DNA from: Escherichia phage L14
Reading direction: 5' to 3' (one strand)
Length of the DNA: 64,000 nt
Sequence record: OQ992558.1
Shown here: piece after piece, positions 1-54,790 of the stretch
Numbering within the stretch: the first letter of the stretch is position 1
Layout of the letters: every line of letters starts with the position of its first letter
Position numbers and translations under genes: made by a program
The notes under the pieces: model-generated
Databases searched by the model: none
What the model was told of the DNA's origin: nothing
Seen by the model: the letters and a program-made list of their open reading frames with translations, nothing else

Positions 1-25
1 ATTCCAAAAATCTTATTAATTATAT

Positions 26-223
26 TCATACTAATTCCTTTAATCCGTAGATAGGAGATAATTCATCGCCCATACGAAGGTCTTCATTTCCATCTACCCA
101 AGAAACAATATAAGCCTCTTTTATTTGAATACCACTCCATTTAAACGAAGGTAGAACCTTAGAAATTAATCCAGGTATATCAACTCCCTTTAATTCAACG
201 GTTTGATCTAAAAAGAATTTCAT
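26..223 (-). CDS. hypothetical protein (65 aa)
   Basis: ORF in tightly packed minus-strand early block; no motif recognised. Confidence 0.35.
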   Translation of the reverse strand: MKFFLDQTVELKGVDIPGLISKVLPSFKWSGIQIKEAYIVSWVDGNEDLRMGDELSPIYGLKELV

Positions 224-510
224 TAGAACCTCATCTGAAAACCATGCGATTTAACATTACCTCCACCAATATCAGAAATATTAATTTCGCGCGCAATTGA
301 AGGGTCAATGTCAATTTCACGATTGAGTTTAGTGATAGCTAAAGTATCGCGCCCATTTACAGTACGAAACTCTAAAGGACAAACCACATCAACGTAGTTT
401 TTAATCGATTCGCTAGTAGGCTGCAAATGTGCAGGAAGGTCTTTAGGCGCCTTTGAGAAAACTACTTCGCAGAAGTTTTTACGAGTATCAAAATAAGTGG
501 TCATAAACAT
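223..510 (-). CDS. hypothetical protein (95 aa)
   Basis: ORF preceded by GAGG Shine-Dalgarno; stop/start packing with neighbours. Confidence 0.45.
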   Translation of the reverse strand: MFMTTYFDTRKNFCEVVFSKAPKDLPAHLQPTSESIKNYVDVVCPLEFRTVNGRDTLAITKLNREIDIDPSIAREINISDIGGGNVKSHGFQMRF

Positions 511-525
511 AATATTTTCCTCAGT

Positions 526-541
526 AAGGGGCCGAAGCCCC
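526..541 (-). promoter_or_regulatory. intergenic stem-loop; GGGGC-UUCG-GCCCC on the minus-strand transcript
   Basis: Inverted repeat aggggc cgaa gcccct read directly; lies between two minus-strand ORFs just upstream of an RBS. Confidence 0.5.
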
Positions 542-549
542 TTTTTATT

Positions 550-915
550 TTAAATATCAAATTCGTTAAGAACTACATCAAAGATTGCTTCAAGATGCTC
601 AGGTTTAGCTCTATTACTCAGAATATGACGAATCCAAGTTTTAACCAGAAGCTTACGATTAACACCATTCCAGCAAGGATGAGTCCCTAAATCACGTTGA
701 CGAAAATCATCATCTAATGCGATTTTAAAAGAAGAACCTTCTTTCGTGATTGAAACTGTAATACCGTTTTCAAATCGCATATAAACGTAATTAGGAGTCA
801 TATACTGTTCAATTTCGCATACTGATCCATTTTGATGTTTCCAAAGGCAGATAGTATCAATAGAACCTGCAATACCATTAGAAACATATTTACGCTCAAA
901 GTTGATGTAGTTCAT
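550..915 (-). CDS. hypothetical protein (121 aa)
   Basis: ORF in early block. Confidence 0.45.
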   Translation of the reverse strand: MNYINFERKYVSNGIAGSIDTICLWKHQNGSVCEIEQYMTPNYVYMRFENGITVSITKEGSSFKIALDDDFRQRDLGTHPCWNGVNRKLLVKTWIRHILSNRAKPEHLEAIFDVVLNEFDI

Positions 916-983
916 TTTTATTCTCCGAGATGTTTAATTGCGGTACAGGTATATAATATCATATCCTGTACCAAAGTAAACAA

Positions 984-1316
984 TTATTTTACTACTTTCC
1001 AGTGTTGCATGTCAAGTTTACCGACTTTTTTCATCTTCTCAATTAAGCGTTCGGCACGTTGGCGAGCTGTAACATAATGCCATTCGCCTAATTCATTTTG
1101 TTCAATTTTTCCAACGATTACTGTATTCAATTCATAAATCCAACCAGTAAAGAAATTATGAACTTGAATTGTAAAGGTGAAATCTGTTCCCATACCTTCT
1201 GTTGTTTCTACTTCAATAATATCACCTTCAACTGCCATTAAGAACCACATAGTTTCATCATATTTACCATTGAAGCATTTAGTTTTAACTGCAGCGTTCA
1301 GATTAATCGTTTTCAT
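984..1316 (-). CDS. hypothetical protein (110 aa)
   Basis: ORF in early block. Confidence 0.45.
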   Translation of the reverse strand: MKTINLNAAVKTKCFNGKYDETMWFLMAVEGDIIEVETTEGMGTDFTFTIQVHNFFTGWIYELNTVIVGKIEQNELGEWHYVTARQRAERLIEKMKKVGKLDMQHWKVVK

Positions 1317-1343
1317 TTTATTCTCCTTTGTTTGTGTAAGATA

Positions 1344-1373
1344 ATACTATCACAAAGGAACCATACTGTAAAC
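1344..1373 (-). promoter_or_regulatory. T4-early-type promoter (GTTTAC -35, 18-nt spacer, TAGTAT -10)
   Basis: plus-strand gtaaac at 1368-1373 and atacta at 1344-1349; matches T4 early promoter architecture. Confidence 0.45.
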
Positions 1374-1395
1374 AACTTTGTGCAATCTTTGGAAA

Positions 1396-1421
1396 ATAAA
1401 AAAGGACTCCCGAAGGAGTCC
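1396..1421 (-). terminator. rho-independent terminator; GGACUCC-UUCG-GGAGUCC followed by U-tract
   Basis: Perfect 7-bp stem with UUCG loop then UUUUUUAUUUU on minus strand, immediately downstream of ORF 1427-1603. Confidence 0.7.
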
Positions 1422-1426
1422 TCAAC

Positions 1427-1603
1427 TTATGCTTTCTGCTTACCAAAACGAGAAGCATCATCTCGAAGAACCGCACGTGCTCGGCGCATGATCTTCTCAA
1501 CAGTTTGATTGATACGAGAGTTCGACCCACGCTTGTAGCCAGCGCGTTTAGAATCACCAACTTTCTTTTCAACTGCTTTCTTTGCTTTAACTTGTTTTGC
1601 CAT
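1427..1603 (-). CDS. small basic protein (58 aa; start taken at internal Met MAKQVK)
   Basis: Lys/Arg-rich ORF; ORF-track start at 1645 has no RBS, so start placement is inferred. Confidence 0.4.
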   Translation of the reverse strand: MAKQVKAKKAVEKKVGDSKRAGYKRGSNSRINQTVEKIMRRARAVLRDDASRFGKQKA

Positions 1604-1849
1604 TATAAATTCTCTTTTAAATGAAAATGCAGGACTTATTGGCATTGCCTGCGCAAGCCCTCAAGGGGAACATAGGTTTTTGGATATTTAACGACCAGGA
1701 TAACCATAAACCCGTCATCATTCACATTCAAGAGGTACACCGTAAAAACTGCCGGGGTCTTAAAACTATAATGATTCGCAAATCATTAATCAGACAATTT
1801 CGACGGCTCCTCGATTTTAGCTCACACTAAGGCAGTGAATCTCCATAAA

Positions 1850-2098
1850 TTACTTCAATGTTACCACAAAGTGACGAACTGCTTTTCGTGCAGCAGAAGC
1901 CAGAGGCTTAGCATATTTAAGTTCATCTTTTTCCTGAAGCTCAGCAGCTAGTGCAGTTTGAGCAGGATTCAGATGTTTGAAATAACGCAGGATTTCAAGA
2001 GCTTCGGCTTCAACATCAATAGATGCGCCATAGTTTTCGTGACCATTATTCCATGCGTTTCGTTGCAGTTCAAGAGCGTGTTGTAATTGTTTAATCAT
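1850..2098 (-). CDS. rIII: rIII-like lysis-inhibition accessory protein (82 aa)
   Basis: Length and position downstream of gene 31 match T4 rIII; sequence identity recalled, not verified. Confidence 0.5.
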   Translation of the reverse strand: MIKQLQHALELQRNAWNNGHENYGASIDVEAEALEILRYFKHLNPAQTALAAELQEKDELKYAKPLASAARKAVRHFVVTLK

Positions 2099-2245
2099 TT
2101 AAAAATTCTCGTTAGAGATTAAAACTCGGTAGTCACGTTCTTCTGAATTTCATCTTCTTTCGACAGATCTCTCAGTTGTAGACTACCACATAGAATTGTT
2201 CGGTTAACTTATTATTCCGACACCCAATTCATATTATTATTTATA

Positions 2246-2581
2246 TCACTTATAAAGACACGGAATAGCTTTATAGTGACAGGTAACGAATTTTTGTTTA
2301 ATTTCTTTTGGCTGCTTAAGACCCAGAGCTACAAGAGGATGCGGAACGTTTCGAATTTGACCAACTGGAAGAGAAGTCAAATCACCAACTTCGCAGAAAC
2401 CTTCAGGAACATCAGGACCAACAGAGTGAATTACACACAGTTCAGGAACTTCACCTTGAACACGTTTACCGATAATAAGTCCTGATTCTGTAACTTCTTC
2501 ATCACCAGCCTGTGCAGGTTCAGAAACTAAAATAACATATTCACCGACAGCACGAATTGGCAGCTGTTGTACTTCAGACAT
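2246..2581 (-). CDS. 31: gp31 co-chaperonin (GroES-like), 111 aa
   Basis: Length and sequence match recalled T4 gp31; position next to cd. Confidence 0.85.
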
Positions 2582-2637
2582 CGTTTTTCCTTTTTGTTAA
2601 CAGATGAATTAATAATAACAAATAATTCTTAAAGCAT

Positions 2638-2946
2638 TTATTTACCAATAAATTGGAGTAAATGCTCAACTTTCATACCATTAACGGAAATCAATTTGTC
2701 AATAGAAAAACCTCGCCATGCACCAAGCTCAACATCAAATACTGGAATCATGTCAGTAGATTCTTTCCGAGTAGATTCAGTCAATTTGTCAGTTTGTATG
2801 GTTGGCATAAAGTCTGCATCACGAGTACCTTTCATGGTACGAATAGTACCATCAGACTTTTCAAAAACTACGTTTGAAATACCCATGGACAATTTAGTTT
2901 TCAAAATTTCACGAATTGCTACTTTTTGTTCAGTCGTCAGTTTCAT
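2638..2946 (-). CDS. hypothetical protein (102 aa), 31.1-like position
   Basis: ORF between 31 and cd. Confidence 0.45.
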   Translation of the reverse strand: MKLTTEQKVAIREILKTKLSMGISNVVFEKSDGTIRTMKGTRDADFMPTIQTDKLTESTRKESTDMIPVFDVELGAWRGFSIDKLISVNGMKVEHLLQFIGK

Positions 2947-3183
2947 TTATTTACCTATTACAGTTTTAATATGAGTTGTTCCACGTTCTTTAAGAGTGGA
3001 AAGTAATTTTTGGCATTTTTCTAAATCAGATTTCCAACTATGTGGTCTATCAATACAAACCCAGTTTGACTTATAATACTGCTTCCATTTAGAGAAAAAA
3101 TACTTCTTATACTCTACAGCAAATGAAATGTTCTCGTTGGAATAAGAACTAATTGCTGTGAGTTGTACCAAACGAAATTTCAT
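2947..3183 (-). CDS. hypothetical protein (78 aa), 31.2-like position
   Basis: ORF abutting cd. Confidence 0.45.
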   Translation of the reverse strand: MKFRLVQLTAISSYSNENISFAVEYKKYFFSKWKQYYKSNWVCIDRPHSWKSDLEKCQKLLSTLKERGTTHIKTVIGK

Positions 3184-3764
3184 TATTCACCACAGAATTC
3201 GTTGATATTTTCCCAGTTTAACTTATTCAAGTTTTTCTTAGGAACATTAAACACTTCAATACCTGCATTTCGCAGAATATCATCCCAGCCAGGTTTATTT
3301 TTATCGTATGTTTCACAATAAACCAGCTTTTTAATTCCAGATTGAGCTATTGCTTTTGCACAATCTGGGCAAGGAGAAAGTGTTACATACATAGTAGCAC
3401 CTTCAATTGAAGAACCGTTTCGTGCAGCAAACAAAATAGCATTTAGTTCAGCATGAATTTCATTTTTAGACGACCATTCAGAGTGCGCGCTACGATGTTC
3501 TTTCGCCAATACAAAACGATCAGTTGAACCAAACGATACACATTCAGGCTTATGACCTTGAATGATAGTATGTTTAGGCTTATTCAGCAACCAACCTTGC
3601 TCAGCAGCATAATCACAGCAGTTCACACCACCTGCAGGTGAACCATTATATCCAGTAGAAATAATACGTCCATTCTTTTCAATTACTGCTCCTACTTTCC
3701 AGGAGCAACATTTTGATTCTTGTGATACTAAATATGCAATTTGAAGTACTGTACTCGCTTTCAT
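3183..3764 (-). CDS. cd: dCMP deaminase (193 aa)
   Basis: Zinc-dependent deaminase motifs HAE...PCxxC (HAELNAI...SPCPDCAKA) visible; length equals T4 Cd. Confidence 0.9.
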   Translation of the reverse strand: MKASTVLQIAYLVSQESKCCSWKVGAVIEKNGRIISTGYNGSPAGGVNCCDYAAEQGWLLNKPKHTIIQGHKPECVSFGSTDRFVLAKEHRSAHSEWSSKNEIHAELNAILFAARNGSSIEGATMYVTLSPCPDCAKAIAQSGIKKLVYCETYDKNKPGWDDILRNAGIEVFNVPKKNLNKLNWENINEFCGE

Positions 3765-4099
3765 TTCATAATCACCAGATAAGCAGATTTAGCAGTTTCA
3801 ACACGATAAATTTCGTGACGAAGTTTAGTTATACTTTTAATAACAGAACTAATTATATTCTGCCCATCTTTAAAGCGGTTTTTCTTATCAATAAAAATTG
3901 CGCCAACCATCTTTTTGTGAAGCTCAACCGGATACTTCGTCACAATAATAGCATCATACACAGAAGGATGAATACTATTCACCAGAGTATCATTCATTAA
4001 AGTTATTCTAATGAACTTTGCTGTTTCAGAGTCAAGCGCTCTATGATCGCCAGTATCATTTTCAAGACAATTATCAATTATATCAGTTAAATTCATCAT
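3761..4099 (-). CDS. hypothetical protein (112 aa)
   Basis: ORF in cd-pseT interval (cd.x-like). Confidence 0.45.
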   Translation of the reverse strand: MMNLTDIIDNCLENDTGDHRALDSETAKFIRITLMNDTLVNSIHPSVYDAIIVTKYPVELHKKMVGAIFIDKKNRFKDGQNIISSVIKSITKLRHEIYRVETAKSAYLVIMK

Positions 4100-4332
4100 A
4101 GTACGCCATACACCCTTTGTGCTTCAACTAATCCATCAAAATCCAATTTGAGATGTGTTATTTGGTCACCATCACCTGGATTCACAATTACTAATACTGA
4201 ACGAGGAGTTTCGGTAATAACACGAACCGATGTTTCGGGAAATCGTTCAGAAACCTTATTTACTAATTCCTGCGCAAATAGTTTAACTTTTTCTTGGAAT
4301 TCTTTAACAGTAATTGGTTTTTCACTTAGCAT
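4096..4332 (-). CDS. hypothetical protein (78 aa)
   Basis: ORF in cd-pseT interval; start overlaps upstream stop. Confidence 0.45.
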   Translation of the reverse strand: MLSEKPITVKEFQEKVKLFAQELVNKVSERFPETSVRVITETPRSVLVIVNPGDGDQITHLKLDFDGLVEAQRVYGVL

Positions 4333-5255: not shown

Positions 5256-6456
<1,201 letters not shown>

Positions 6457-13870: not shown

Positions 13871-14190
13871 CATTATGTTCAGATAAGGTCGTTAATCTTA
13901 CCCCGGAATTATATCCAGCTGCATGTCACCATGCAGATCAGACTATATCTTCAACTTGTTAAAGCAAGTTGTCTATCGTTTCGAGTCACTTGACCCTACT
14001 CCCCAAAGGGATAGTCGTTAGGCATTTATGTAGAACCAATTCCATTTATCAGATTTTACACGGTAAGTAACTAATCCTGATGAAATTATTAAAGGGTAGT
14101 CCTACAATTTAGCACGGGATTGTCTACTAGAGAGGTCCCCCGTTTAGATAGATTACAAGTATAAGTCACCTTATACCTAGGCCTCAATTA
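13871..14190 (-). other. group I self-splicing intron in td, 320 nt, no internal ORF
   Basis: 5' end UAAUUGAGGCCUAGGUAUAAGGUG..., 3' end ...UAACGACCUUAUCUGAACAUAAUG match recalled T4 td intron ends; exon 1 ends in U, intron ends in G. Confidence 0.85.
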
Positions 14191-14739
14191 ACCCAAGAAA
14201 ACATCTACACTGCGTTGATACCATTGTAAATCAAGATAACCATTACGCACATTAAACTGATAGAACATATGACAAGGTGGTAATGCCATATATTTAAGTT
14301 CAGCTGGATTCCACGCAGAAACAATTTGACGCCTATCACTTGGTAGTTTTTTAATACGATCAATAACTTCTATAATTTGGTCTACACCGCCAAAATCGCG
14401 CCACTGTTTTCCATAAATTGGGCCAAGTTCACCACTATGGTATCCTAAATCTTTTGCCTGATTTTCGTAATTTTCATCCCAAACTGTTTTGCCTTGGATT
14501 AACGAATCATGCTGAATTAATCGTAAATCATTGACATTTGTGCTTCCTGATAAAAACCAAAGTAGCTCAGCAATGCAAGCTTTCCAGGCGAGCTTCTTAG
14601 TTGTTACCGCAGGAAAACCTTTAGTTAAATCCCAGCGTAATTTAGTACCGAATAAAGCAATTGTTCCTGTGCCTGTTCGGTCATCGGTTTCATAGCCATT
14701 TTCAAAAATGTCTTTAATTAAATCTTGGTATTGTTTCAT
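14191..14739 (-). CDS. td: thymidylate synthase, exon 1 (183 aa)
   Basis: TS active-site region ...LPPCHMFYQF...; ORF hits stop UAA exactly at intron 5' end. Confidence 0.9.
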
Positions 14740-15151: not shown

Positions 15152-15978
<827 letters not shown>

Positions 15979-15989
15979 ATTGCCTCCTA

Positions 15990-16322
15990 TTAAAAAGGAT
16001 CAGTAACATATCCGCTAGCTTTAATCATTTTAATTAACGTTAACATTCCTTTGTTAACTGCTCGTGAGATTTCATCAAAAACTTCATCACTAAAAAGTTC
16101 TAACACGCCCTTCTGAACTTTTAATTTACAGCCAACAATTTCGTCATCTCCTATAGTAAATTCGCTTCCGCCAATTCCGCCGAAAAACTTAATTACGCCA
16201 GTTAACTGTCTTCCACGAGAATATGGGTCGTGTGATAAAGTAATATGAGTCACCCCAGGTACAGTTTTAAATTGGCAGCGGATGTTTACTTGAGCAATTC
16301 CAGTTACATGAATGTCAGACAT
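15990..16322 (-). CDS. hypothetical protein (110 aa)
   Basis: ORF in 32-frd interval. Confidence 0.45.
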   Translation of the reverse strand: MSDIHVTGIAQVNIRCQFKTVPGVTHITLSHDPYSRGRQLTGVIKFFGGIGGSEFTIGDDEIVGCKLKVQKGVLELFSDEVFDEISRAVNKGMLTLIKMIKASGYVTDPF

Positions 16323-16713: not shown

Positions 16714-17094
16714 CTACTTTTTGAAAGTTTTTCGCAAAAGTTCAATGATTTCATCTACATTGTTTTCGTCAACAATGCAGTGAATTTTTGTTACGCCAGA
16801 AACTTTGTCTTTGACTTCATCTTCTTCAGAAGTCGGTTCTTTATACTCACGAAAACAATGAAATTCGTCTTCACAAACGTTAAAGTAAAAATGCTTTCCA
16901 TTTGCGCATTCAATGTGTTTTATTACTCTAAATCCATCAACAAAGAAAGCTTCTTTAACTTCAAACCATCCGCCATTTTCTTGAATAATTTTAACTATTG
17001 CTGAATTAGAACGTGGGCGATAATTAATAAATGTATCAATAAGTCTTGGAACAAGTTCATACTTTTTGCCGATTTCCATTTTGATTTTCCTCAT
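16714..17094 (-). CDS. hypothetical protein (126 aa)
   Basis: ORF in 32-frd interval. Confidence 0.45.
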   Translation of the reverse strand: MRKIKMEIGKKYELVPRLIDTFINYRPRSNSAIVKIIQENGGWFEVKEAFFVDGFRVIKHIECANGKHFYFNVCEDEFHCFREYKEPTSEEDEVKDKVSGVTKIHCIVDENNVDEIIELLRKTFKK

Positions 17095-17124
17095 TTTAAT
17101 AGGGGCTTAATAGCCCCTTGATAA

Positions 17125-17352
17125 TTATTGTTCAATCATTCCCATGTAAAATTCTGTGTCTTCAGCATCCATACCATCACAATATTCATTAGCCATAAAG
17201 CGGGTGAGGTCTTCAAGAGGACCTTCAATAACGATTTGAATACTCCAAAACTTAGAATCTTGTACGCTTGTGATACTAAGTTCAGGATAACGATTACGAA
17301 TAATTTCTTCAATATATTCAAAATCAACGATGTCAATATCAACTTTAGCCAT
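17125..17352 (-). CDS. hypothetical acidic protein (75 aa; start at internal Met with AGAGGAAA RBS)
   Basis: RBS-supported start; the longer ORF-track start would overlap the upstream promoter. Confidence 0.45.
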
Positions 17353-17395
17353 ATTATTTTCCTCTTTAATTATCAGCAGTATTGCCGATAGTTGT

Positions 17396-17425
17396 ATAGT
17401 ACCATGGAAGGACAAGGATGTAAAC
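17396..17425 (-). promoter_or_regulatory. T4-early-type promoter
   Basis: plus gtaaac 17420-17425, atagta 17396-17401; part of a repeated promoter module. Confidence 0.45.
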
Positions 17426-17448
17426 CGTTTTGTGAAAAAATTTTTGAA

Positions 17449-17475
17449 ATAAAAAAGGGGACCTCTAGGGTCCCC
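17449..17475 (-). terminator. rho-independent terminator downstream of gene 32
   Basis: GGGGACC/GGUCCCC stem followed by UUUUUU on minus strand, 23 nt after gene 32 stop. Confidence 0.7.
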
Positions 17476-17497
17476 AATTAATTAGTAATATAATCTA

Positions 17498-18406
17498 TTA
17501 AAGGTCATTCAAAAGGTCATCCAGGTCTGTGTCATCAGCACTAGATGAACTGCCAGAGCTTGAGCTCATAAAATCATCTTCAGTTTTTGTTTTGAAGTCA
17601 TCAACATTGAATGCATCCAAATCATCAGCAACTTTATCAGCTTTCTTAGCGGCAGTTGCAGCGGCACCACCCATTGCAGCAGTTCCCATAACTTGACTGA
17701 ACTTAGTGCTCAGTTCTTCAAATGATTTGAATTTATCTTTAGAAGTCATTTCAGAAAGGTCAACCATTTGTTCGAACAGTTCTTTCTGGAAAGATTCATC
17801 GTCAATGTTTGGAATCGCAGATTGATTCAGGAATTTAGATTCGTCGTAGTTACTAAATCCAGAAACCTGTTTAACTTTCAGTACAAAGTTAGCACCTTCC
17901 CACGGACAAGTTACATCAACCGGAGTTTCACCCATTTCAACATCAACCGCAATCATCGCGTTGATTTTATCCCAGATTTTCTTACCGAAACGATATTTAA
18001 ATACTTTACCTTCATTTTCTGGAGCAGCTGGGTCTTTTACAACAAGAATATTAGCCCAGTAAGAAGTTTTACGTTTAACAAGACTGTACTCTTTATTGTC
18101 AGTGTTGTACAGATCATTTTTACTGATGTACTGACATACTGGACAAGAATCGTAATCACCGTGGGTAGATGAACAGTTTTCAATATACCATTTACCATTT
18201 TTCTTGAAACCGTGATTTACAAGAATTGCGAATGGTGCTTGTTCATCATTTTTAGACGGAAGAAAACGAATTACTGCTTGACCGTTACCCGCATTGTCGA
18301 GTTTCAGTTTCCACTCGCCTTTATCTTCAGAAGAAAAACCACCTTTATTTCCAGCCAGTTTAGCCATTTGTGCAGCGAGTTCAGCAGTAGATTTACGTTT
18401 AAACAT
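17498..18406 (-). CDS. 32: gp32 single-stranded DNA-binding protein (302 aa)
   Basis: N-terminus [17 protein letters not shown]... and acidic C-terminal tail match recalled T4 gp32. Confidence 0.93.
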
Positions 18407-25766: not shown

Positions 25767-25771
25767 ACTGA

Positions 25772-25798
25772 GGGAGCCTTCGGGTTCCCTTTTTCTTT
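25772..25798 (+). terminator. rho-independent terminator after gene 35
   Basis: GGGAGCC-UUCG-GGUUCCC then UUUUUCUUU on plus strand. Confidence 0.7.
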
Positions 25799-29472: not shown

Positions 29473-29504
29473 CAGCAGGGGGCTTTGCCCCTTTGGAGAA
29501 AATT

Positions 29505-34139: not shown

Positions 34140-34166
34140 TAAAAAAGGGAGAGCCGAGGCTCTCCC
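34140..34166 (-). terminator. rho-independent terminator (GGGAGAGCC/GGCUCUCCC stem + U-tract)
   Basis: 8-bp GC-rich stem followed by UUUUUU on minus strand. Confidence 0.65.
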
Positions 34167-34171
34167 TAAAA

Positions 34172-35954: not shown

Positions 35955-35970
35955 GGCGTCCGAAGACGCC
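35955..35970 (-). promoter_or_regulatory. UUCG-loop stem-loop (GGCGUC-UUCG-GACGCC) upstream of RBS
   Basis: 6-bp stem read directly. Confidence 0.5.
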
Positions 35971-37785: not shown

Positions 37786-38343
37786 TTAAATGGAAAGATA
37801 CCATCCGTTGTAGTTGCTTTTTCTTACAACCTTACGAAGGTCTTCTCTATCACCGATGAACTTCGGAGTGTACTGGATGACACCTGGGTGAATTTCTTTA
37901 GTGTTGAATATAATTATACAGTCAGCGACCTGATGATTCAGAATGGGCCCTAGATTTATTCCAGAACCGTATGGATACTCTCCGCTGCATCCTGTTGTTA
38001 CAGAAATCCAACGTGAGTCAGTTTGATGTGTCTTAACTTCTACACGAAGCCCACAGTATCTTGGATGTGCTAAAACATCCCATGCATATGTATACGGATC
38101 ATCGACATCTTCTTGGCCTTTATTGACATATCCGCTTAGCCAATCTGCCACAAAAAACTCTGCGTACACAGCGATACGACATCTTTCGATAACTTCTGCC
38201 TTATCCTGATTTGGGTTTTGTTTTAAAGAGTATCTTGCAGTATCAGCAATTTTGACCTTCATTTCACTAGTCAAGTCACTGTTCGATAGGGTAAATGTCG
38301 GAATCTGAAATAGTCTCTGTAAACCCGGATTCGTTTTCTGCAT
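37786..38343 (-). CDS. denB: endonuclease IV-like (185 aa)
   Basis: Length and position (between ndd and rIIB) as T4 denB; AAGGAAA RBS. Confidence 0.65.
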   Translation of the reverse strand: MQKTNPGLQRLFQIPTFTLSNSDLTSEMKVKIADTARYSLKQNPNQDKAEVIERCRIAVYAEFFVADWLSGYVNKGQEDVDDPYTYAWDVLAHPRYCGLRVEVKTHQTDSRWISVTTGCSGEYPYGSGINLGPILNHQVADCIIIFNTKEIHPGVIQYTPKFIGDREDLRKVVRKSNYNGWYLSI

Positions 38344-38593
38344 TTAGACTTTCCTTTTTACCGCTGAGATAAGCGTTATATACTTTAAGAGTGCCGTAAT
38401 AAATTCGGTCATTTTCATCTAAAGACTCACGGTCAAGTTCATCGAGTTCCTTTTTATCCATGACTATAACATCATTGCAGTAAAGAAACCCAAGTTTTTC
38501 GTGACCAAACTCAAATTTATTGCAGTACACAATATTAGCGTGATGATTTCCGTGTAGATTAATCTCTTTTATGTCGGAATCACCGATATTCAT
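38276..38593 (-). CDS. hypothetical protein (105 aa)
   Basis: ORF; 3' end overlaps denB start by 68 nt. Confidence 0.4.
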   Translation of the reverse strand: MNIGDSDIKEINLHGNHHANIVYCNKFEFGHEKLGFLYCNDVIVMDKKELDELDRESLDENDRIYYGTLKVYNAYLSGKKESLNAENESGFTETISDSDIYPIEQ

Positions 38594-38625
38594 ACAATAA
38601 ATCATAATTTTTCCTTAAAACAAAA

Positions 38626-38637
38626 GGGCCGAAGCCC
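38626..38637 (-). promoter_or_regulatory. UUCG-loop stem-loop
   Basis: gggc cgaa gccc inverted repeat. Confidence 0.4.
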
Positions 38638-38643
38638 CTTATT

Positions 38644-38838: not shown

Positions 38839-38852
38839 AATTTTCCTTAGTT

Positions 38853-38868
38853 AAGGGCCGAAGCCCTT
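38853..38868 (-). promoter_or_regulatory. UUCG-loop stem-loop (AAGGGC-UUCG-GCCCUU)
   Basis: 6-bp stem immediately downstream of rIIB stop. Confidence 0.5.
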
Positions 38869-39805
38869 ATTTAAATTGTTCAGTAACGTCTTCAACTACT
38901 TCGTATTGGCAGGTACGCATTTTAGCATCGTTGTAATCAATCGGAATTGATACTACATCACGCGGATGCACTTTAACTTTTACAACTCGACTGGTTGAAC
39001 TGCCAAAGTGACGAATATAAGATTTAGAACACACATGCAGACCACGAGAACAAGTTTGTGTATCATCGTCATTCACACGAGTACGTGGCATTTTAACTAC
39101 TTTACCAGGACTGTTATCAAAAGTATTTGAATGACAGTCAAAGTAATTGCTGCGAACTACTTTCCAAGCATAGAAGTAACCATCTTCTGTAATTTCAATA
39201 TCGTTTGCTACCAAGAAATCAAAGAGTCGAGATACCGCTTTTTGGCTTGGGTTTTCCAACAGATTTTCCAAGAACGGAAAATAAAATTCAAAGTTTTCGC
39301 CTTTTTCCATCGAATCGAGAATACGATCAACTAAACCAGACCGCAATTCAATATTTTGATAGAACAAGCTTCCACCTTCAATTCGAACATCACCGGAAAT
39401 ATATTTTTCAACGGCGCGACGAACGTTAATTTTTTGCGCCGCTTCTTCCAATTTATCTGTAACAAGCAGATTAAGAATTTCCTGGAAGTTTGAATGAGTA
39501 TTAGGAGTTGCGTTATAAGTTACACCGTCAACAGTAATTGAAATGAATTTTTTAGATGCATTCCAAATAATGTCAGATTTAGCAACTGGAGCAATAACTG
39601 CATCGCTATTAACTTTAACTGTAATGTCACCGCTAATAGTAACTTTAGAGCGTTCTGCTTCTTCAGCATTTTTCAAAACACGACGGATTGTGTCAACCGA
39701 TACACCTTGCCAATCAGCCAATTCCTGCTGGGTGTAATTACCACTTGAATACAGTTTAACAATTTCAGCTTGTTCGTTTTTGGTCAGGCATTTAATATTG
39801 TACAT
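38867..39805 (-). CDS. rIIB: rIIB (312 aa)
   Basis: Matches recalled T4 rIIB length and N-terminus. Confidence 0.9.
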   Translation of the reverse strand: MYNIKCLTKNEQAEIVKLYSSGNYTQQELADWQGVSVDTIRRVLKNAEEAERSKVTISGDITVKVNSDAVIAPVAKSDIIWNASKKFISITVDGVTYNATPNTHSNFQEILNLLVTDKLEEAAQKINVRRAVEKYISGDVRIEGGSLFYQNIELRSGLVDRILDSMEKGENFEFYFPFLENLLENPSQKAVSRLFDFLVANDIEITEDGYFYAWKVVRSNYFDCHSNTFDNSPGKVVKMPRTRVNDDDTQTCSRGLHVCSKSYIRHFGSSTSRVVKVKVHPRDVVSIPIDYNDAKMRTCQYEVVEDVTEQFK

Positions 39806-42233: not shown

Positions 42234-42263
42234 ATTATACCACATCCTTGTGGTAAAGTAAAC
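42234..42263 (-). promoter_or_regulatory. T4-early-type promoter (GTTTAC / TATAAT)
   Basis: plus gtaaac 42258-42263, attata 42234-42239. Confidence 0.45.
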
Positions 42264-44083
42264 TACTGGCTCATCCATTCTTTACGAAGGTCAGCATTAT
42301 CTCCCATGAGCATTTCAAAAAGCTCTTTCCAGTTCTCAGGAAGTTTAACAACATCATATACTGGATTTTGAATCATCTCACGATATTCAGATTTTTCCAA
42401 AGAGCCAAGTCCTTTAATATAACGGATGCTATGTTTAGGTAGAGCATCTTTAGCACTCTCATATTCAGCGACTGTATAAAACCATTCTTGTTTTTTACCG
42501 ACCTGAGCGATGATTACAGGAGTTTTGACAAAACGAATTCTTCCTTGCTCAAACAGTTCTGGCCAATTACTAAAAAACCCGAGCAGAGAAGGATAAATGC
42601 TTCCTAGACCATCATGGTCAGCATCAGTCATAATAGCAATATTATGATAATTCAAGTTTTCAGCTTTTTCACCGAGAACTAATCCAGTGATTGCGCAAAT
42701 ATCAAACAATTCTTTGTTTTTAAGCATATCAGCATATGACATACCCCAACTGTTGAGAACTTTACCGCGCAATGGATAACCACCATGAAGTTCTTTATCA
42801 CGAACATCAATAAGATATCCGATAGCAGAATCACCCTCAGTCAAGAAAAGAGTAGTGTCAGCATCTTTACCGCAAAGATTCGCTTTAATGTGTTTATGAA
42901 CCTTAGCTTTAGAAGCCTTTTTAGCTGCTTTAGTTTCTGCTGCCTTTTCTGCCGCCAATTTACGAGCCAAAGCAGCTTCAATAATTGGCATTAAAATTGC
43001 TTCATTGTTTAAAATAGCACGTGAAATCTTTTTAGCATCAAGCTGAATATGACTACGAATTTCACCAAATGGAGAAGTCAAACGCTCTTTAGTTTGAGAA
43101 TCAAATCGCATGTTTTTCATATCACGAACAAACATAACGATAGTCAAACATTCTTTAACACGTGCTTTAGTTACATCAATTTTGAACTTACGTTTGATTT
43201 GTGGAATAAGGTCTTCACAAATATCATCCATAACACAGTCAATGTGATGGCCACCATTCTTAGTGTGAATGTTATTGACGTATGTTAATTGACGAAAACC
43301 ATCCGGTGAACGACCAACCGCAATAGAACAATTTTCTTGTTCTTGAACAATAGCATGCTCATCATATTGGCGTGCATATTTCTTAAAATTGCCCTGAACC
43401 TTTTTACCATTAAAGGTAAATTGAATATCAGGATAAACTACTGCAAGTGTCTGGAGACGATCTAGTGTAATGTCAAGATAAACTTGGGACAGCTCATTAG
43501 TTTCAAATGACATAAAATCAGGAATGAAAGTAACACGAGTTCCTTTCCATTTTCCAGGAATAGTTTCCCATGATTTATTTTCCATGCCATTTGAACAACG
43601 AACTACAATATTATTTTGACCATCACCAGTTTCACCGACAAACATCACAGAAAAAATGTTTGTCAAACTAGAACCAACACCATTCATACCGCCAGTGACG
43701 CGTTCTTTATCATCACCGAAGTTACCACCTGCTTTTGGAATAGTCCATGCAGCAACAGGACCAGGAATTTCTTCACCGGTAGGTGTTTTAACCATCGCCT
43801 GCGGAATACCACGACCGTTATCTTCAACTGTTACTTGATTGTTTTTAATAGTAACATTAATTTTATTTGCGAATTTAAACTTAGTACGAATACCTTCATC
43901 TACTGAGTTATCGATAATTTCATCAATAAGCTTAACAAGACCAGGTACATACTGAACACTTTCCCATTTACCAAACAGAAAGCGCTCATGCATTTCATTA
44001 GCAGAAGAGCCAATATACATGCCGCTACGCTTTTTGATATGTTCAATATCACTCAGAATTTTAATTTCATTCTTAATCATCAC
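42263..44083 (-). CDS. 39: topoisomerase II large (ATPase) subunit, unsplit 606-aa form
   Basis: GyrB-like ATPase and TOPRIM regions in one continuous ORF. Confidence 0.9.
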   Translation of the reverse strand: MMIKNEIKILSDIEHIKKRSGMYIGSSANEMHERFLFGKWESVQYVPGLVKLIDEIIDNSVDEGIRTKFKFANKINVTIKNNQVTVEDNGRGIPQAMVKTPTGEEIPGPVAAWTIPKAGGNFGDDKERVTGGMNGVGSSLTNIFSVMFVGETGDGQNNIVVRCSNGMENKSWETIPGKWKGTRVTFIPDFMSFETNELSQVYLDITLDRLQTLAVVYPDIQFTFNGKKVQGNFKKYARQYDEHAIVQEQENCSIAVGRSPDGFRQLTYVNNIHTKNGGHHIDCVMDDICEDLIPQIKRKFKIDVTKARVKECLTIVMFVRDMKNMRFDSQTKERLTSPFGEIRSHIQLDAKKISRAILNNEAILMPIIEAALARKLAAEKAAETKAAKKASKAKVHKHIKANLCGKDADTTLFLTEGDSAIGYLIDVRDKELHGGYPLRGKVLNSWGMSYADMLKNKELFDICAITGLVLGEKAENLNYHNIAIMTDADHDGLGSIYPSLLGFFSNWPELFEQGRIRFVKTPVIIAQVGKKQEWFYTVAEYESAKDALPKHSIRYIKGLGSLEKSEYREMIQNPVYDVVKLPENWKELFEMLMGDNADLRKEWMSQ

Positions 44084-44133
44084 TTATCCTCGTTTGGTTT
44101 CGGGAATATTATACTCCGGTAATCATAAAGCTA

Positions 44134-44149
44134 AAGGCCCGAAGGCCTT
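44134..44149 (-). promoter_or_regulatory. UUCG-loop stem-loop (AAGGCC-UUCG-GGCCUU)
   Basis: Inverted repeat upstream of gene 39 RBS. Confidence 0.45.
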
Positions 44150-44419
44150 TTATTTAAAACGGATAGTCGAATCCTTGAAGAATAGACCAGAACACACGGT
44201 TCCTTCTACTTTCTGCCCAGTAGGTCCAATAGCACGAAATCCAGTATGTTGAAAATCATTTTCAGAGCAACCGAACCAGTTGTATCCAGTGATTTCAATA
44301 TTAGTAAAACCACTTGAAGACAAAACTTTGGTTGCATTATCAGCATCAGTACATCCTGCTAAAGACACTGCTAATACTAATGCTGCGATAGAACGATTAA
44401 TATATTTCATAGTTTTCAC
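44150..44419 (-). CDS. putative lipoprotein (89 aa)
   Basis: Signal peptide with lipobox LAGC. Confidence 0.5.
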   Translation of the reverse strand: MKTMKYINRSIAALVLAVSLAGCTDADNATKVLSSSGFTNIEITGYNWFGCSENDFQHTGFRAIGPTGQKVEGTVCSGLFFKDSTIRFK

Positions 44420-48868: not shown

Positions 48869-50188
48869 TCACACATAAAACACATCATAACGACCACGAG
48901 TAACACCAACATAAAGAAGCTGCTGAGCTAGTTCAGCATCTGCATAATGAATACAAGGCGTATAGATGAAAGCACGGTCTACAGACATACCCTGCGCTTT
49001 ATGGAACGTTGATGCAGGAAGTGCTTTCACTTTACTAAACTGTGATTTAGCATCCCAAAAATCACTCCATGGAGCTTTTCCACCTTTATTCCAATTTTTA
49101 TAAGTTTCTGCCGTTTTACCTAAAAATAGGTTAAACTTATATAGCTCTTCATCAGATGAAATTATTTTAATCTTTTCACGATAATATTCATCATCGCCGT
49201 AAGTTTCTACTGTTAAATCCCAATGACGAATTAAGTATTCTCCAGGAACACCACGAGCTTTAACAAACGTCGATGTATACTCTGCTTCTATAATACGAAC
49301 TAATTGTCCGTTATTAAAAATAATTTCTGACACAGGCTTTCCATCAATTTTATATGTTTTAATTAATGGTTCCTGCATTACAATAATTTCACCGACAATA
49401 AAATCTTTATCAGTTTCAAAAATCTTTTTACGAATAATGCTATTTAACTTGTCAACAGATTTATTTGTAAATGCCATTACGCGATTTTCAAACAAATCGT
49501 CTAGTGATTTTACGATTGAAAAATAATTTACCATAAAATCGCGTAAAGCGGTATCACCAGTAAATCCACGTACTCCATGGCCGTCAACAACTTTATCATA
49601 AATCCACTTACCGTTGCGAACATCAGTAGCTACATCAATAATAGGAGCATTACTGCGTTTAACTTCAGTGAGTTCACGCTGATAAAAATCTTTGTGTGTA
49701 AAGAATGGACTGATATAAGCAGTATTTTCTCCTGGATCAACAGGTCTAATTTGCTTATTATCACCTATTCCAATTATAGTACACCAAGGTGGAATAGTTG
49801 AAAGCAGAATTTTAAATAGCTTTCTATCATACATTGACACTTCGTCGCAGATTAATACCCTGCATTTAGCTAAATCTGGTACTTCCTTCTGTTCAAAAAG
49901 AACGTTTTCTTCATACGTAACTGGGTTAATTTTAAGAATACTGTGAATAGTACTCGCTTCTTTCCCTGATAGTTTTGAAAGAATCTTTTTAGCTGCATGT
50001 GTAGGAGCTGCCAAAATGATACCAGTTTCGCCCGTAGATATTAAAGCTTCAATGATGAACTTAGTAAGAGTAGTCTTACCAGTACCAGCAGGTCCATTAA
50101 TAGTTACATGATGTTTCTTTTCTTTAATAGCCCTCATAACGATGTTAAAGGCATTTTTCTGGCCTTCAGTCAAATCATCAAATGTCAT
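48869..50188 (-). CDS. dda: Dda SF1B DNA helicase (439 aa)
   Basis: Walker A GPAGTGKT; matches recalled T4 Dda. Confidence 0.92.
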   Translation of the reverse strand: MTFDDLTEGQKNAFNIVMRAIKEKKHHVTINGPAGTGKTTLTKFIIEALISTGETGIILAAPTHAAKKILSKLSGKEASTIHSILKINPVTYEENVLFEQKEVPDLAKCRVLICDEVSMYDRKLFKILLSTIPPWCTIIGIGDNKQIRPVDPGENTAYISPFFTHKDFYQRELTEVKRSNAPIIDVATDVRNGKWIYDKVVDGHGVRGFTGDTALRDFMVNYFSIVKSLDDLFENRVMAFTNKSVDKLNSIIRKKIFETDKDFIVGEIIVMQEPLIKTYKIDGKPVSEIIFNNGQLVRIIEAEYTSTFVKARGVPGEYLIRHWDLTVETYGDDEYYREKIKIISSDEELYKFNLFLGKTAETYKNWNKGGKAPWSDFWDAKSQFSKVKALPASTFHKAQGMSVDRAFIYTPCIHYADAELAQQLLYVGVTRGRYDVFYV

Positions 50189-50496
50189 CGTAAATTCCCT
50201 GCAATTGGTATACTAACAATACGCCCAGTATCTAAAATTCGCTGATATAATCTTTGCGTGTCTACGTCAGGCTTAACATGTTTAACTTCTATTTTATTAA
50301 ACCAAAATTTACGTGGAGTCTCAACTAATCTTGGAATTCCTTTACCTAAAGCTAGTCGATACTGTTCTTTAAGAGTGGTAAATACTTTATCAGCAATCTT
50401 CCATTCAAAAAATACAGCAGGACGATGTTCATCAAGTGGAACTGGCGCCGTAAATCCGTCTTTGTCTCGGTAAACTATCGCATATACATAAACCAT
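50185..50496 (-). CDS. hypothetical protein (103 aa), dda.1 position
   Basis: ORF, 4-nt overlap with dda. Confidence 0.45.
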   Translation of the reverse strand: MVYVYAIVYRDKDGFTAPVPLDEHRPAVFFEWKIADKVFTTLKEQYRLALGKGIPRLVETPRKFWFNKIEVKHVKPDVDTQRLYQRILDTGRIVSIPIAGNLR

Positions 50497-50497
50497 A

Positions 50498-51244
50498 TTA
50501 TCCTCGGATAAGTTTAAAAATTGAACAATTTAGCGGGTATCCTCTTTTCAGTTTAAGTTTATCAATAAAAGACAAGTTTTGATACCGCTCTACACCTTGA
50601 ATAATTTTATCACACATATCATATTGCATTTCTGCTTCTGACAACTTTTTCACAGTTTTCCAATCCGAGCCTTTAAGAAGAACGTTCAATTTAACAACTT
50701 CAGCGCCTTCTGCTATACGAGAACCATCAATACGAGCTTTAAGTGCTATAATTCTTAGCTTAATGTCAGAGGTCTGTTTTGATTTAGAAAGCTGAGAAAT
50801 GTGTTCAATTCGGTTTTCACGTTTTTTCTGTATAGCTTTAATTTGATTATAGGTCTTTTTGATTTTAGCCCATTTCTTTTCATCTAAATTTAGTTTATGA
50901 ACTTTTTTCGCAGATGAACGACCAATTCGCAAAGCAAATAAATCACGCTTTTCAATCAACTCTTCTAAAGTATAATCAGAACGAAATGTATTATACTTTT
51001 TCTTTACTGCAATAACATTCCCTTTAATGTATCCAACGTTATTATCAAAACGTTCTAATGATAATTTCTCTCCTTCAATACGATTATCAAAAGGTTCTCC
51101 TGAGTAAGCGCAAACTTTCTGATCTAAAATATTCTTAATATAATTGAAGTCTAAGTTAAAATCTTTAGAACGTCTTTTTGCAGATGCCTGAGTATGCTCT
51201 AGACGACGTTTAATTTTACGAATTTGGTTATTAGATAGCTTCAT
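50498..51244 (-). CDS. srd: Srd-like protein (248 aa)
   Basis: Size and position between dda and modA; basic/coiled-coil. Confidence 0.55.
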   Translation of the reverse strand: MKLSNNQIRKIKRRLEHTQASAKRRSKDFNLDFNYIKNILDQKVCAYSGEPFDNRIEGEKLSLERFDNNVGYIKGNVIAVKKKYNTFRSDYTLEELIEKRDLFALRIGRSSAKKVHKLNLDEKKWAKIKKTYNQIKAIQKKRENRIEHISQLSKSKQTSDIKLRIIALKARIDGSRIAEGAEVVKLNVLLKGSDWKTVKKLSEAEMQYDMCDKIIQGVERYQNLSFIDKLKLKRGYPLNCSIFKLIRG

Positions 51245-51280
51245 ATTTTTCTCACATCTTACGGACGGTTAACTACTTAT

Positions 51281-51310
51281 ACTATAACATTTTTACTTCA
51301 GCTTGTAAAC
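51281..51310 (-). promoter_or_regulatory. T4-early-type promoter upstream of srd
   Basis: plus gtaaac 51305-51310, actata 51281-51286. Confidence 0.4.
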
Positions 51311-51321
51311 AACTTTATGTA

Positions 51322-51350
51322 AAAATGCTTTAAAACTTTCATGGTATAAT
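51322..51350 (+). promoter_or_regulatory. MotA-box middle-promoter-like element on plus strand (aaaTGCTTTA, 12 nt, TATAAT)
   Basis: TGCTTTA at 51326-51332, TATAAT at 51345-51350; orientation opposite to flanking genes. Confidence 0.35.
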
Positions 51351-51367
51351 GAATCTAAGTCCTTCCA

Positions 51368-51970
51368 TTATAGATTAAATCCTTCAAAATCAAGAGTATA
51401 GATAGTGTATGTTGAATACTTTTTGTACTCATATCTATCTGCAATTCTAAATACACTTCCAGCTGGTATCATTACTTCTTGTTCATCTGAAACTAATTCC
51501 ATATTACGATAACGATGGCTATCTGGAAACTTAAAACTTGGACTATATTCTTTACAACGTAGAGCTTTTATAGCATACTCCTGGAAATTAAATACCATAG
51601 GAGCTTTGAATTCAAAAATAACTTGTGTGTTATACTCTAAACCGGAAGCAAAATGTAGAGCTATATTTTTATCATATGAAGCTGATACTACTTTATCAAA
51701 TGTAATAATATCAATTCCTTGATTTAATACTTGCTTAGTCTCAGCTGGAACACCTCTCCAAAGAGGTTTATCGTTTGGTTCCAAACGAGATTTGATTATT
51801 TCATTTAACCAAGTATGGTCATCTGGTTTATTAGTAATACAATGAATTAAAAGTTCAATTTCAGATAAATTAAACCCTTCAGAAAGTAATTCTTCACGAA
51901 TAGAAGCACGCACCGATGCATCCATTGATTTTATTTTAAAATCTTTTAGTTGCATTACTGAGTATTTCAT
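51368..51970 (-). CDS. modA: ADP-ribosyltransferase ModA (200 aa)
   Basis: R-S-E ART motifs (LWRG, S-x-S, EQEVMIP); length as T4 ModA. Confidence 0.75.
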   Translation of the reverse strand: MKYSVMQLKDFKIKSMDASVRASIREELLSEGFNLSEIELLIHCITNKPDDHTWLNEIIKSRLEPNDKPLWRGVPAETKQVLNQGIDIITFDKVVSASYDKNIALHFASGLEYNTQVIFEFKAPMVFNFQEYAIKALRCKEYSPSFKFPDSHRYRNMELVSDEQEVMIPAGSVFRIADRYEYKKYSTYTIYTLDFEGFNL

Positions 51971-52590
51971 TCAACTACCTCAATATCATAAACTTTAAAT
52001 GTTCCAAATGAATCGTGTAATTTTTCTTTTGAAATAGAAGTTATTCTATACTTTCCAATTGGAATCATCCATTCTTGTTCACGCACAATCATCATTAAGT
52101 TATCAGTACGCTCTGAATCTAGCCCATCAGTATCTTCATACGTGTACTTAAACTCAGTATTAGGAGAAGAAAGTATAATATCGCTGATATGGTCAGAATA
52201 ATTAAAAGCTTTATCAGTTTTTAAGCGAAATATTATTTCAGTGAAATACTCAACATAAGAAAAACCACATGCTGTGTGCAAACTAGTAGTAAATGAATCT
52301 ACCCTATTCGTTGAAAACACTTCTCCAACTTGTAAATCTTTAATGAGTTCTTTTGTCGATTTTGATATACCACGATATAACTGATAAGGTGATTTAGTTA
52401 AATGCTTTTTAACGATTTTATTCAACTGCCGATGAAGAGCTTCATTCTTTTTAGCTTCCATACATTGCCAAAGAACTGACTGCTCAAAGTCAGTAAATTT
52501 TTCACAGACCTTTTTATACATATCATATTGAAAATCAACGCTTTCAGCTTTTATAGATAACTGTTCAACATCTGCAAGATTAATAATCAT
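51967..52590 (-). CDS. modB: ADP-ribosyltransferase ModB (207 aa)
   Basis: R-S-E ART motifs (LYRG, STN, EQEWMIP); paralogue of modA. Confidence 0.75.
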   Translation of the reverse strand: MIINLADVEQLSIKAESVDFQYDMYKKVCEKFTDFEQSVLWQCMEAKKNEALHRQLNKIVKKHLTKSPYQLYRGISKSTKELIKDLQVGEVFSTNRVDSFTTSLHTACGFSYVEYFTEIIFRLKTDKAFNYSDHISDIILSSPNTEFKYTYEDTDGLDSERTDNLMMIVREQEWMIPIGKYRITSISKEKLHDSFGTFKVYDIEVVE

Positions 52591-52616
52591 GATAGCCTCC
52601 GTATACTTCAGAAGCT

Positions 52617-52646: not shown

Positions 52647-52657
52647 AACTTTTTGAA

Positions 52658-52840: not shown

Positions 52841-52848
52841 ACTAATTC

Positions 52849-54782: not shown

Positions 54783-54790
54783 TTGAATTA

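Follow-up and report, generated by a model that had tools for sequence, protein, structure and literature searches.

Selection on RNA structure maintains C(UUCG)G hairpins at gene boundaries of a T4-like coliphage

A T4-like window with nine UUCG hairpins

The window analysed here is a stretch of 64,000 nucleotides from Escherichia phage L14 (OQ992558.1), and its genome type is that of Tequatrovirus, the T4-like coliphages. Two 4-kb pieces compared by megablast were 98-99% identical to many T4-type phages of Escherichia, Shigella, Yersinia and Salmonella. Alignment of the window with T4 (NC_000866) gave 77-97% identity per block, 90-97% in most, with mosaic indels between the blocks. Position 1 of the window corresponds to T4 128,936, the T4 coordinate origin is crossed at 39805/39806, and the window ends near T4 26 kb. 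The minus strand is the gene strand, with the exception of a late tail-fibre block (genes 34-38 and t) that is encoded on the plus strand. Coding sequence takes up ~91% of the sense strand, leaving ~9% non-coding. An Rfam scan of the whole window returned the td group I intron as its sole match, and no known structured RNA family matched the UUCG hairpins in that scan.

Nine hairpins capped by UUCG lie in the window, all nine with a C-G closing pair (C-UUCG-G):

526-543, minus strand: AAGGGGC-UUCG-GCCCCUU, no U-tract, 6 nt past the 30.7 stop codon; ACUGAGGAAAAU (Shine-Dalgarno) directly after, 30.6 AUG 15 nt downstream; -12.1 kcal/mol
1402-1423, minus strand: copy 1 of an identical pair, GAGGACUCC-UUCG-GGAGUCCUU with a U-tract, 3 nt past the stop codon of the gene 30.9 homologue; -14.9 kcal/mol; terminator-like
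25770-25791, plus strand: GAGGGAGCC-UUCG-GGUUCCCUU, then UUUUUCUUU, 3 nt past the gene 35 stop codon on the late sense strand; -14.6 kcal/mol; z = -3.1
35955-35970, minus strand: GGCGUC-UUCG-GACGCC, located between stp and ac, no U-tract; AGUGAGGAAAAU next, AUG 12 nt downstream; -10.0 kcal/mol
38623-38640, minus strand: AAGGGGC-UUCG-GCCCUUU, then UGUUUUAAGGAA, 3 nt past the denB.1 stop codon and 17 nt before the next AUG
38852-38869, minus strand: UAAGGGC-UUCG-GCCCUUA, no U-tract; ACUAAGGAAAAU next, denB.1 AUG 13 nt downstream; -10.1 kcal/mol
44133-44150, minus strand: AAAGGCC-UUCG-GGCCUUU, where gene 39.1 ends; the 3' arm enters TTTAGCTTTA, which resembles a MotA box, and TATAAT (44113-44108) comes after a further 12 bp
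54763-54784, minus strand: copy 2 of the identical pair, AAGGACUCC-UUCG-GGAGUCCUU with a U-tract, 6 nt past the soc stop codon; -14.5 kcal/mol; z = -3.8
60361-60380, minus strand: UCCCCCUC-UUCG-GAGGGGGA inside gene 40 (codons S-P-S-S-E-G-E), 37 nt past the uvsX stop codon; -15.9 kcal/mol

A preliminary description of this DNA had named eight UUCG hairpins on the minus-strand RNA, and our hairpin scan recovered all of them on that strand. The ninth, at 25770-25791(+) after late gene 35, was not on its list. The nine hairpins have computed energies of -9.4 to -15.9 kcal/mol. Each hairpin is present in the minimum-free-energy fold that ViennaRNA gives for its own context of ~60 nt; four of them have modest local z-scores (-1.3 to -1.9).

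Enrichment, strand and position

Hairpins were counted if they had a UUCG loop and a stem of at least 5 pairs, of which at least 3 are G-C. The minus strand holds eight of these, compared with a mean of 0.12 and a maximum of 1 in 200 dinucleotide-preserving shuffles. UUCG is the loop in 8 of the 51 minus-strand tetraloop hairpins that meet the stem criteria, and every other loop occurs at most 2 times. The hairpins might be regarded as a chance by-product of composition, and the bare CTTCGG hexamer, taken by itself, could be read in that way: it is only ~2.5-fold enriched and nearly equal by strand (15 and 14 occurrences vs 5.8 expected). Such an enrichment of the hexamer, alike on both strands, means that the signal is specific to the hairpin form. 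A chance origin is ruled out by the dinucleotide-preserving shuffles and is opposed by the position, strand and covariation signals as well, and we give it virtually no weight.

All nine hairpins, the plus-strand one in the late block included, are in the sense orientation relative to the genes around them, as assigned by homology to the T4 annotation. Eight of the nine are intergenic and begin 0-6 nt past the upstream stop codon. G-U pairs are present in the stems at 25770+ and 38623 and at the soc site in L016, a relative, where pairing is possible in the sense-strand RNA only. These pairs would be A-C mismatches on the opposite strand, which argues for a function at the RNA level and against a DNA palindrome.

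This last point bears on the proposal that the palindromes act as DNA, in the form of cruciforms, protein-binding sites or recombination hot spots, and that the RNA fold is incidental. T4-type phages contain cassettes of a terminator and an early promoter, termed PeSL (Arbiol et al. 2010, PMC2839356; Comeau et al. 2014, PMC4122927), and the PeSL authors speculate that the GGGG...CCCC stem may be a target of a recombination protein (PMC2839356). GGGC motifs have also been found at T4 deletion end-points (PMC2839356), and in our window the 38623 hairpin adjoins an indel relative to T4. However, a DNA palindrome would have no strand preference, and here UUCG, not CGAA, is on the sense strand in nine of nine cases. 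The loop sequence is moreover conserved and the stems are variable. Together with the G-U pairs, these observations make a DNA role very improbable.

Covariation at orthologous sites

Comparative loci were drawn from IMG/VR around homologues of gp30.8, Soc, DenB and gp40. In the sampled loci a hairpin was found at the orthologous place every time, and the stems had changed by compensated substitutions. The soc stems read GGACUCC, GGAAUCC, GGAAUCC/GGGUUCC (a U-G intermediate), GGAACC and GGGAACC, and the CUUCGG loop is kept. Across nine distinct soc sequences, 97.5% of the cells are paired and both sides have changed in four of nine pairs. The resulting covariation score was reached by 0 of 500 shuffles, and slid registers collapse.

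Similar changes were observed elsewhere. The stem at the 30.9/30.8 site is GGACUCC or GGGACUC, and that at the 30.7/30.6 site is AGGGGC or GGAGGC with the same Shine-Dalgarno sequence after both. Between denB.1 and denB, AAGGGC is replaced by AAGGGAC with the matching change in the other arm. The gene 40 hairpin is kept at third-codon, synonymous positions in homologues that are just 55% identical, while the neighbouring synonymous sites have diverged. In one relative a double-synonymous change in this stem, from CCC/GAG to CCU/GAA, preserves the pair.

At orthologous sites, relatives or T4 itself have UUUG, UUCA or UCAG in the loop, or a loop that is shorter by one base. What is selected is therefore a stable hairpin, for which UUCG is preferred but not obligatory. 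The hairpins are kept by RNA-level selection, with compensatory changes in the stems and a CUUCGG loop that is largely retained, and the covariation, with the synonymous sites of gene 40 included, is clean comparative support for it. The UUCG hairpins are real, strand-specific, placed at gene ends and covarying.

Hairpins followed by a U-tract

It had been suggested beforehand that the hairpins act as terminators. A good U-tract follows three of the nine (1402, 54763 and 25770+), and a terminator-like scan of the sense strand flagged, among the UUCG hairpins, only these three and 38623. The suggestion is not supported as a generalisation: terminator anatomy is seen at the U-tract sites and weakly at 38623. 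The remaining five (526, 35955, 38852, 44133 and 60361) have no U-tract on the sense strand and instead abut a Shine-Dalgarno sequence, overlap a promoter or lie inside gene 40.

The stem at 25770+ contains two G-U pairs, and T4 has the same hairpin with a C-U mismatch at the equivalent 35/36 site. At 38623 the weak U-tract is UUUUGUUUU, followed by AAGGAA, and it is possible from this sequence that the hairpin is a weak terminator. Distant relatives have AAGGGAC-UUCG-GUCCCUU plus UUUUCUUU at this site.

On the anatomy of these sites we infer with good confidence that the U-tract hairpins would terminate or attenuate transcription, and that those at 1402 and 54763 would insulate the next unit, driven by an early promoter. 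The hairpins, which are predicted to fold fast and to be unusually stable, lie at gene boundaries of the transcribed strand and would serve as Rho-independent terminators or attenuators at 1402, 54763 and 25770+, and weakly at 38623. A transcript terminated in this way would end in a hairpin that should resist 3' exonucleases. A role of the hairpins as mRNA-stabilising 3' ends, which the preliminary description had also put forward, is plausible and is a long-standing proposal for hairpins of this kind.

In its strongest form the terminator proposal would make every hairpin a Rho-independent terminator that sets the 3' end of an early transcript. The three or four U-tract hairpins that pass the scan are in keeping with this, as is the start of the hairpins just past stop codons. 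Against it, the sense-strand scan flags just the four sites, a Shine-Dalgarno sequence comes at once after the U-tract-less stems at 526, 35955 and 38852, AGCUUUAUGAUU follows the 44133 hairpin, and 60361 is situated within gene 40. We consider it quite unlikely that all of the hairpins are terminators. A literature search for T4 Term-seq data or transcript-end maps found nothing usable.

Two strong terminators on the sense strand of the window have loops other than UUCG, both from the terminator-like scan:

17457-17475, sense strand: terminator with a CUAGA loop, after gene 32
34146-34167, sense strand: terminator with a CUCG loop, between motA.1 and motA

As these strong terminators use different loops, UUCG is favoured but not universal.

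The identical pair at 1402 and 54763

The preliminary description had reported two identical copies of one hairpin, and GGACTCCTTCGGGAGTCC indeed occurs exactly twice in the window, at 1404-1421(-) and 54765-54782(-). In 100 shuffles it found 0 matches, even with 2 mismatches allowed. With the flanking pairs included both helices are 9 bp long (1402-1423 and 54763-54784), and TTTTTT follows both. The shared identity is 24 nt, made up of the 18-mer and T6, after which come the near-identical ATTTT and CATTTT; the flanks beyond are unrelated. Both copies have the full anatomy of an intrinsic terminator: a GC stem runs into a U6 tract, and the hairpin starts 3-6 nt past a stop codon. Their T4 equivalents are at 130339-130360 (copy 1) and 15303-15324 (copy 2), so that the same identical pair is present in T4 itself. 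In a related GenBank record, MK327936, the 1404-1421 hairpin is annotated computationally as a putative terminator.

Downstream of each copy, a promoter is predicted from the sequence:

1344-1372, minus strand: predicted promoter of the T4 early type, TTTACA-N17-TAGTAT, located after hairpin copy 1 and ahead of the gene 30.8 homologue (ATG at 1316)
54719-54747, minus strand: predicted promoter of the early type, TTTACT-N17-TATAAT, with an extended TG, located after hairpin copy 2 and ahead of the mrh.2 homologue

The first agrees with the sigma-70 consensus at 9 of 12 positions; it is kept in close T4-type relatives, and a different promoter-like sequence is found in RB69-like ones. The second agrees at 10 of 12 positions with the TG present, and is conserved in relatives.

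The identity of the two copies had been put down to copying or strong selection. Copying could have taken the form of duplication, of ectopic gene conversion or of the movement of a terminator/promoter cassette by PeSL-mediated recombination. It would account for 24 nt of perfect identity where none is expected, for a layout of hairpin, U-tract and early promoter that is common to both copies, and for the presence of the same pair in T4. Short patches of homology are also sufficient for T4 recombination, and PeSLs have been proposed as recombination linkers (PMC2839356; PMC4122927). However, the identity stops past the U-tract and the promoter sequences differ, as does the distance from the end of the stem to the -35 hexamer (29 nt at copy 1 and 15 nt at copy 2). 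Comparison of the flanks, in which only the hairpin, T6 and the near-identical (C)ATTTT are in common, rejects a recent duplication of a longer segment. Both sites furthermore lie within blocks that are colinear with T4 (1-4331 and 48869-55066), and neither copy is at an indel boundary relative to T4, as would be associated with PeSLs; the nearest breakpoint to copy 2 is ~280 bp upstream. In RB69-like genomes the two sites have different stems (GGGACUC for 30.9, GGAACC or GGAAUCC for soc), which argues against their concerted evolution.

We also searched IMG/VR for the exact 18-mer, which occurs 108 times in 58 flank contexts and is followed by a T-tract in 102 of the 108. In some genomes the 18-mer is present at as many as three separate loci. 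A control sequence in which only the central pair is flipped, GGAGTCC...GGACTCC, turned up no less often, with at least 121 occurrences in at least 69 contexts, and the matches of both sequences are mostly followed by a T-tract. No evidence of a mobile element was seen among the matches to the 18-mer or to the flipped control. Since both sequences occur more than 100 times in about 60-70 unrelated contexts, the stem sequence is not special, and the equal abundance of the control rejects a special or mobile 18-mer. The presence of the same 18-mer in dozens of unrelated phage contexts also means that identity is no sign of duplication.

Of the two causes first suggested, copying does not agree with the unrelated flanks, the different RB69-like stems and the 58 contexts, and strong selection is the better. 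We judge an origin of the pair by duplication, conversion or cassette movement to be unlikely, although short-patch transfer retains a small probability. Convergence on one of a few near-optimal terminator hairpins accounts best for the pair. Under this explanation each site would have arrived at a common, near-optimal terminator hairpin, and a perfect match between short terminator hairpins of the same genome is not to be read as duplication.

Hairpins without a U-tract

The hairpins at 526, 35955 and 38852 have a common layout in which the stem is followed by A(C/G)U(G/A)AGGAAAAU, the next Shine-Dalgarno sequence is 1-5 nt away and the next AUG is 12-15 nt past the stem. The 526 stem is represented by GGAGGC-UUCG-GCCUCC in RB69-like relatives, and the 35955 hairpin is identical in T4 and close relatives. 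The 38852 stem takes in UAA, the stop codon of rIIB; the loop is UUUG in some relatives, and one base of the 5' arm is missing in T4.

These three hairpins may act within polycistronic mRNA, blocking 3'-to-5' exonucleases and leaving a defined, unpaired ribosome-binding site downstream, a role that we rate at slightly under an even chance. Each would then protect the upstream cistron from exonucleolytic decay in the 3'-to-5' direction, and its local fold would prevent competing structures from engaging the ribosome-binding site downstream. The role of the hairpins without a U-tract is the weakest step in our interpretation, and a pause signal, translational coupling or processing would fit the same anatomy.

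A role of the UUCG hairpins linked to RegB was considered and set aside: the Shine-Dalgarno sequences that follow those without a U-tract are GAGGAAA or AAGGAAA, without GGAG, and structured GGAG sites are RegB-resistant according to the literature. GGAG, the RegB target, is contained in the stems of the identical pair at 1402 and 54763. In T4, intergenic stem-loops and terminators that contain GGAG often have a UUCG tetraloop and are RegB-resistant (PMC1702504).

The 44133 hairpin overlaps a promoter. The MotA box has the consensus (a/t)3TGCTTtA and lies 12 +/- 1 bp from the -10 element (PMC2988021), and at 44133 the stem-loop is followed by such a box, 12 bp and a -10 element, which is the PmSL layout; the middle promoter is P39. 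The hairpin is identical in T4 at 5381-5398, and the T4 P39 start at 5349 is 32 nt past this orthologue.

The position of the gene 40 hairpin just after uvsX suggests that it may be a 3'-end or stability element for the uvsX mRNA. More broadly, the hairpins without a U-tract could be a distinct functional class and not decayed terminators, acting as fixed-geometry elements that set segment-specific decay boundaries in polycistronic early mRNA or that control access to the downstream ribosome-binding site, with the gene 40 hairpin as a 3'-end or processing element of the uvsX mRNA. We regard this broader proposal as tentative and rather doubtful.

Comparison with known systems

The UUCG family is functionally mixed, with terminator-type, Shine-Dalgarno-abutting, promoter-overlapping and intragenic members. 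We hold with considerable confidence that these are T4-type C(UUCG)G mRNA hairpins at gene boundaries, selected for RNA structure, and that the role of each is set by what follows the stem. In common with the Rho-independent terminators of E. coli and phages, the sites at 1402, 54763 and 25770+, and weakly 38623, have a tetraloop on a GC-rich stem, with a U-tract, right after a stop codon. Five of the nine hairpins have no U-tract and hence no terminator anatomy.

REP stem-loops in E. coli operons are 35-nt palindromes that serve as intercistronic barriers to 3' exonucleases. They are likewise stable stem-loops between cistrons without a terminator U-tract, and by analogy a comparable role is proposed for 526, 35955 and 38852. 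In contrast to REP elements, these three hairpins are single, 16-18 nt long, capped by UUCG and placed 1-5 nt from the next Shine-Dalgarno sequence.

The sites at 1402 and 54763 correspond to PeSL cassettes, with an intergenic stem-loop, an early promoter, a Shine-Dalgarno sequence and an ATG in that order. The early promoter consensus of T4/PST is TTTACW-N17-TAYWAT (PMC4122927), from which the TAGTAT -10 hexamer at copy 1 departs once. PeSL stem-loops of phage RB49 have been tested and were effective terminators (PMC2839356), and a terminator followed by a T4 early promoter at our two sites would insulate neighbouring early units from each other. The 44133 hairpin resembles PmSL in the same way, as its stem-loop is directly upstream of a middle promoter with a MotA box. 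The hairpins that abut a Shine-Dalgarno sequence differ from PeSLs in having no promoter.

The closest relatives are in T4 itself. Accounts in PMC4371310, PMC3972237 and PMC8948821 credit Tuerk et al. (1988, PNAS 85:1364) with the discovery of CUUCGG hairpins in the mRNA of T4, where the special nature of the UUCG tetraloop was first noticed, and on those accounts the T4 C(UUCG)G hairpins share with ours the phage group, the CUUCGG loop, the C-G closing pair and a mainly intergenic location in mRNA. T4 has a perfect UUCG hairpin at six of the nine orthologous sites (130339, 15303, 165510, 167716, 5381 and 22329) and near-variants at the remaining three (30.7/30.6, rIIB/denB.1 and 35/36). At the 37/38 site the loop is UUCG in T4 and UUU here, whereas at 30.7/30.6, the 526 site, it is UUCG here and UUCA in T4. 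The gene 60 bypass hairpin of T4 is absent from the window phage. There is no difference in kind from the T4 hairpins; only the choice of sites that carry a perfect UUCG differs. Hairpins of this class have been known from T4 since 1988, and those of this phage are a textbook feature of T4-type phages.

UUCG hairpins and the sense strand

The preliminary description presented the UUCG hairpins as an early-strand family and listed eight, all on the minus strand. A ninth, missing from that list, lies on the late strand.

25770-25791, plus (late) strand: cUUCGg hairpin no. 9 (UUCG tetraloop closed by a C-G pair), with U-tract, 3 nt past the gene 35 stop

The family therefore tracks the sense strand rather than the 'early' strand as such.

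Orthologous hairpin sites show loop turnover when the window, T4 and relatives are compared. The gene 37/38 hairpin has a UUU loop where its T4 counterpart has UUCG, T4 carries UUCA at its 30.7/30.6 site (T4 129440-129495), and some relatives carry UUUG loops. At the T4 rIIB/denB.1 site (T4 167930-167985) a deletion has shortened the stem by one base. Two strong terminators in the window also have loops other than UUCG.

29476-29495, plus: gene 37/38 hairpin AGGGGGC-UUU-GCCCCUU
17457-17475, minus: terminator GGGGACC-CUAGA-GGUCCCC with U6, downstream of gene 32
34146-34167, minus: terminator AGGGAGAGC-CUCG-GCUCUCCCU with U6, motA.1/motA gap
34115-34087, minus: early-type promoter TTTACA-17-TACTAT, following the CUCG terminator

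Since the CUCG terminator is followed by this promoter, the motA.1/motA arrangement is a further cassette resembling PeSL, the published T4-type combination of stem-loop terminator and early promoter.

Hairpins overlapping other elements

44108-44150, minus: 39.1/39 hairpin with MotA-box-like promoter (TTTAGCTTTA, 12 bp, TATAAT), corresponding to the T4 middle promoter P39

The MotA-box-like TTTAGCTTTA shares its A/T-rich part with the hairpin's 3' arm, so a single stretch of DNA both specifies a hairpin in RNA transcribed from upstream and forms part of a promoter. In gene 40, just downstream of uvsX, synonymous codon positions at the hairpin (60361-60380, minus) are conserved across homologues of only 55% identity, and one lineage carries two synonymous substitutions that compensate each other (CCC/GAG to CCU/GAA), which suggests that the coding sequence harbours an RNA element.

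The identical-pair hairpin in viral contigs

Across IMG/VR viral contigs, which come from many environments, the exact hairpin GGACUCC-UUCG-GGAGUCC was present over 100 times (loci L048-L152), as was, among the matches listed, the control with its central base pair swapped (L153-L272). Among these matches, a T-tract nearly always follows either form. Some T4-like genomes hold three copies at separate loci, and in several of these the T-tract runs on into TGCTTT, which is MotA-box-like.

Comparison with T4

The td gene contains a group I intron (13919-14200, minus; Rfam RF00028, 70 bits).

The td intron of L14 lacks the I-TevI homing-endonuclease ORF (T4 143768-144458 unmatched), and the nrdB intron is wholly missing (T4 138457-139056, gone at 10009/10010). 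Also missing is T4 2793-3911, which takes in 60.1, mobA and most of gene 60, the 50-nt translational-bypass gap included; L14 therefore has neither the T4 bypass element nor the UUCG hairpin belonging to it.

42263-44083, minus: topoisomerase gene 39, one 606-aa ORF
38276-38605, minus: additional 109-aa ORF between denB.1 and denB

T4 segF (15610-16307) and dam (16826-17724) are unmatched at 55066-56016 (minus). In place of segF there are two small ORFs (55067-55240 and 55237-55437). Gene 56, at 77% identity to the T4 copy, is the most diverged aligned block of the window. The 109-aa ORF, of which T4 keeps no more than a short remnant, starts 17 nt past the hairpin at 38623-38640. A UUCG hairpin thus borders this indel, an arrangement expected under the PeSL shuffling model.
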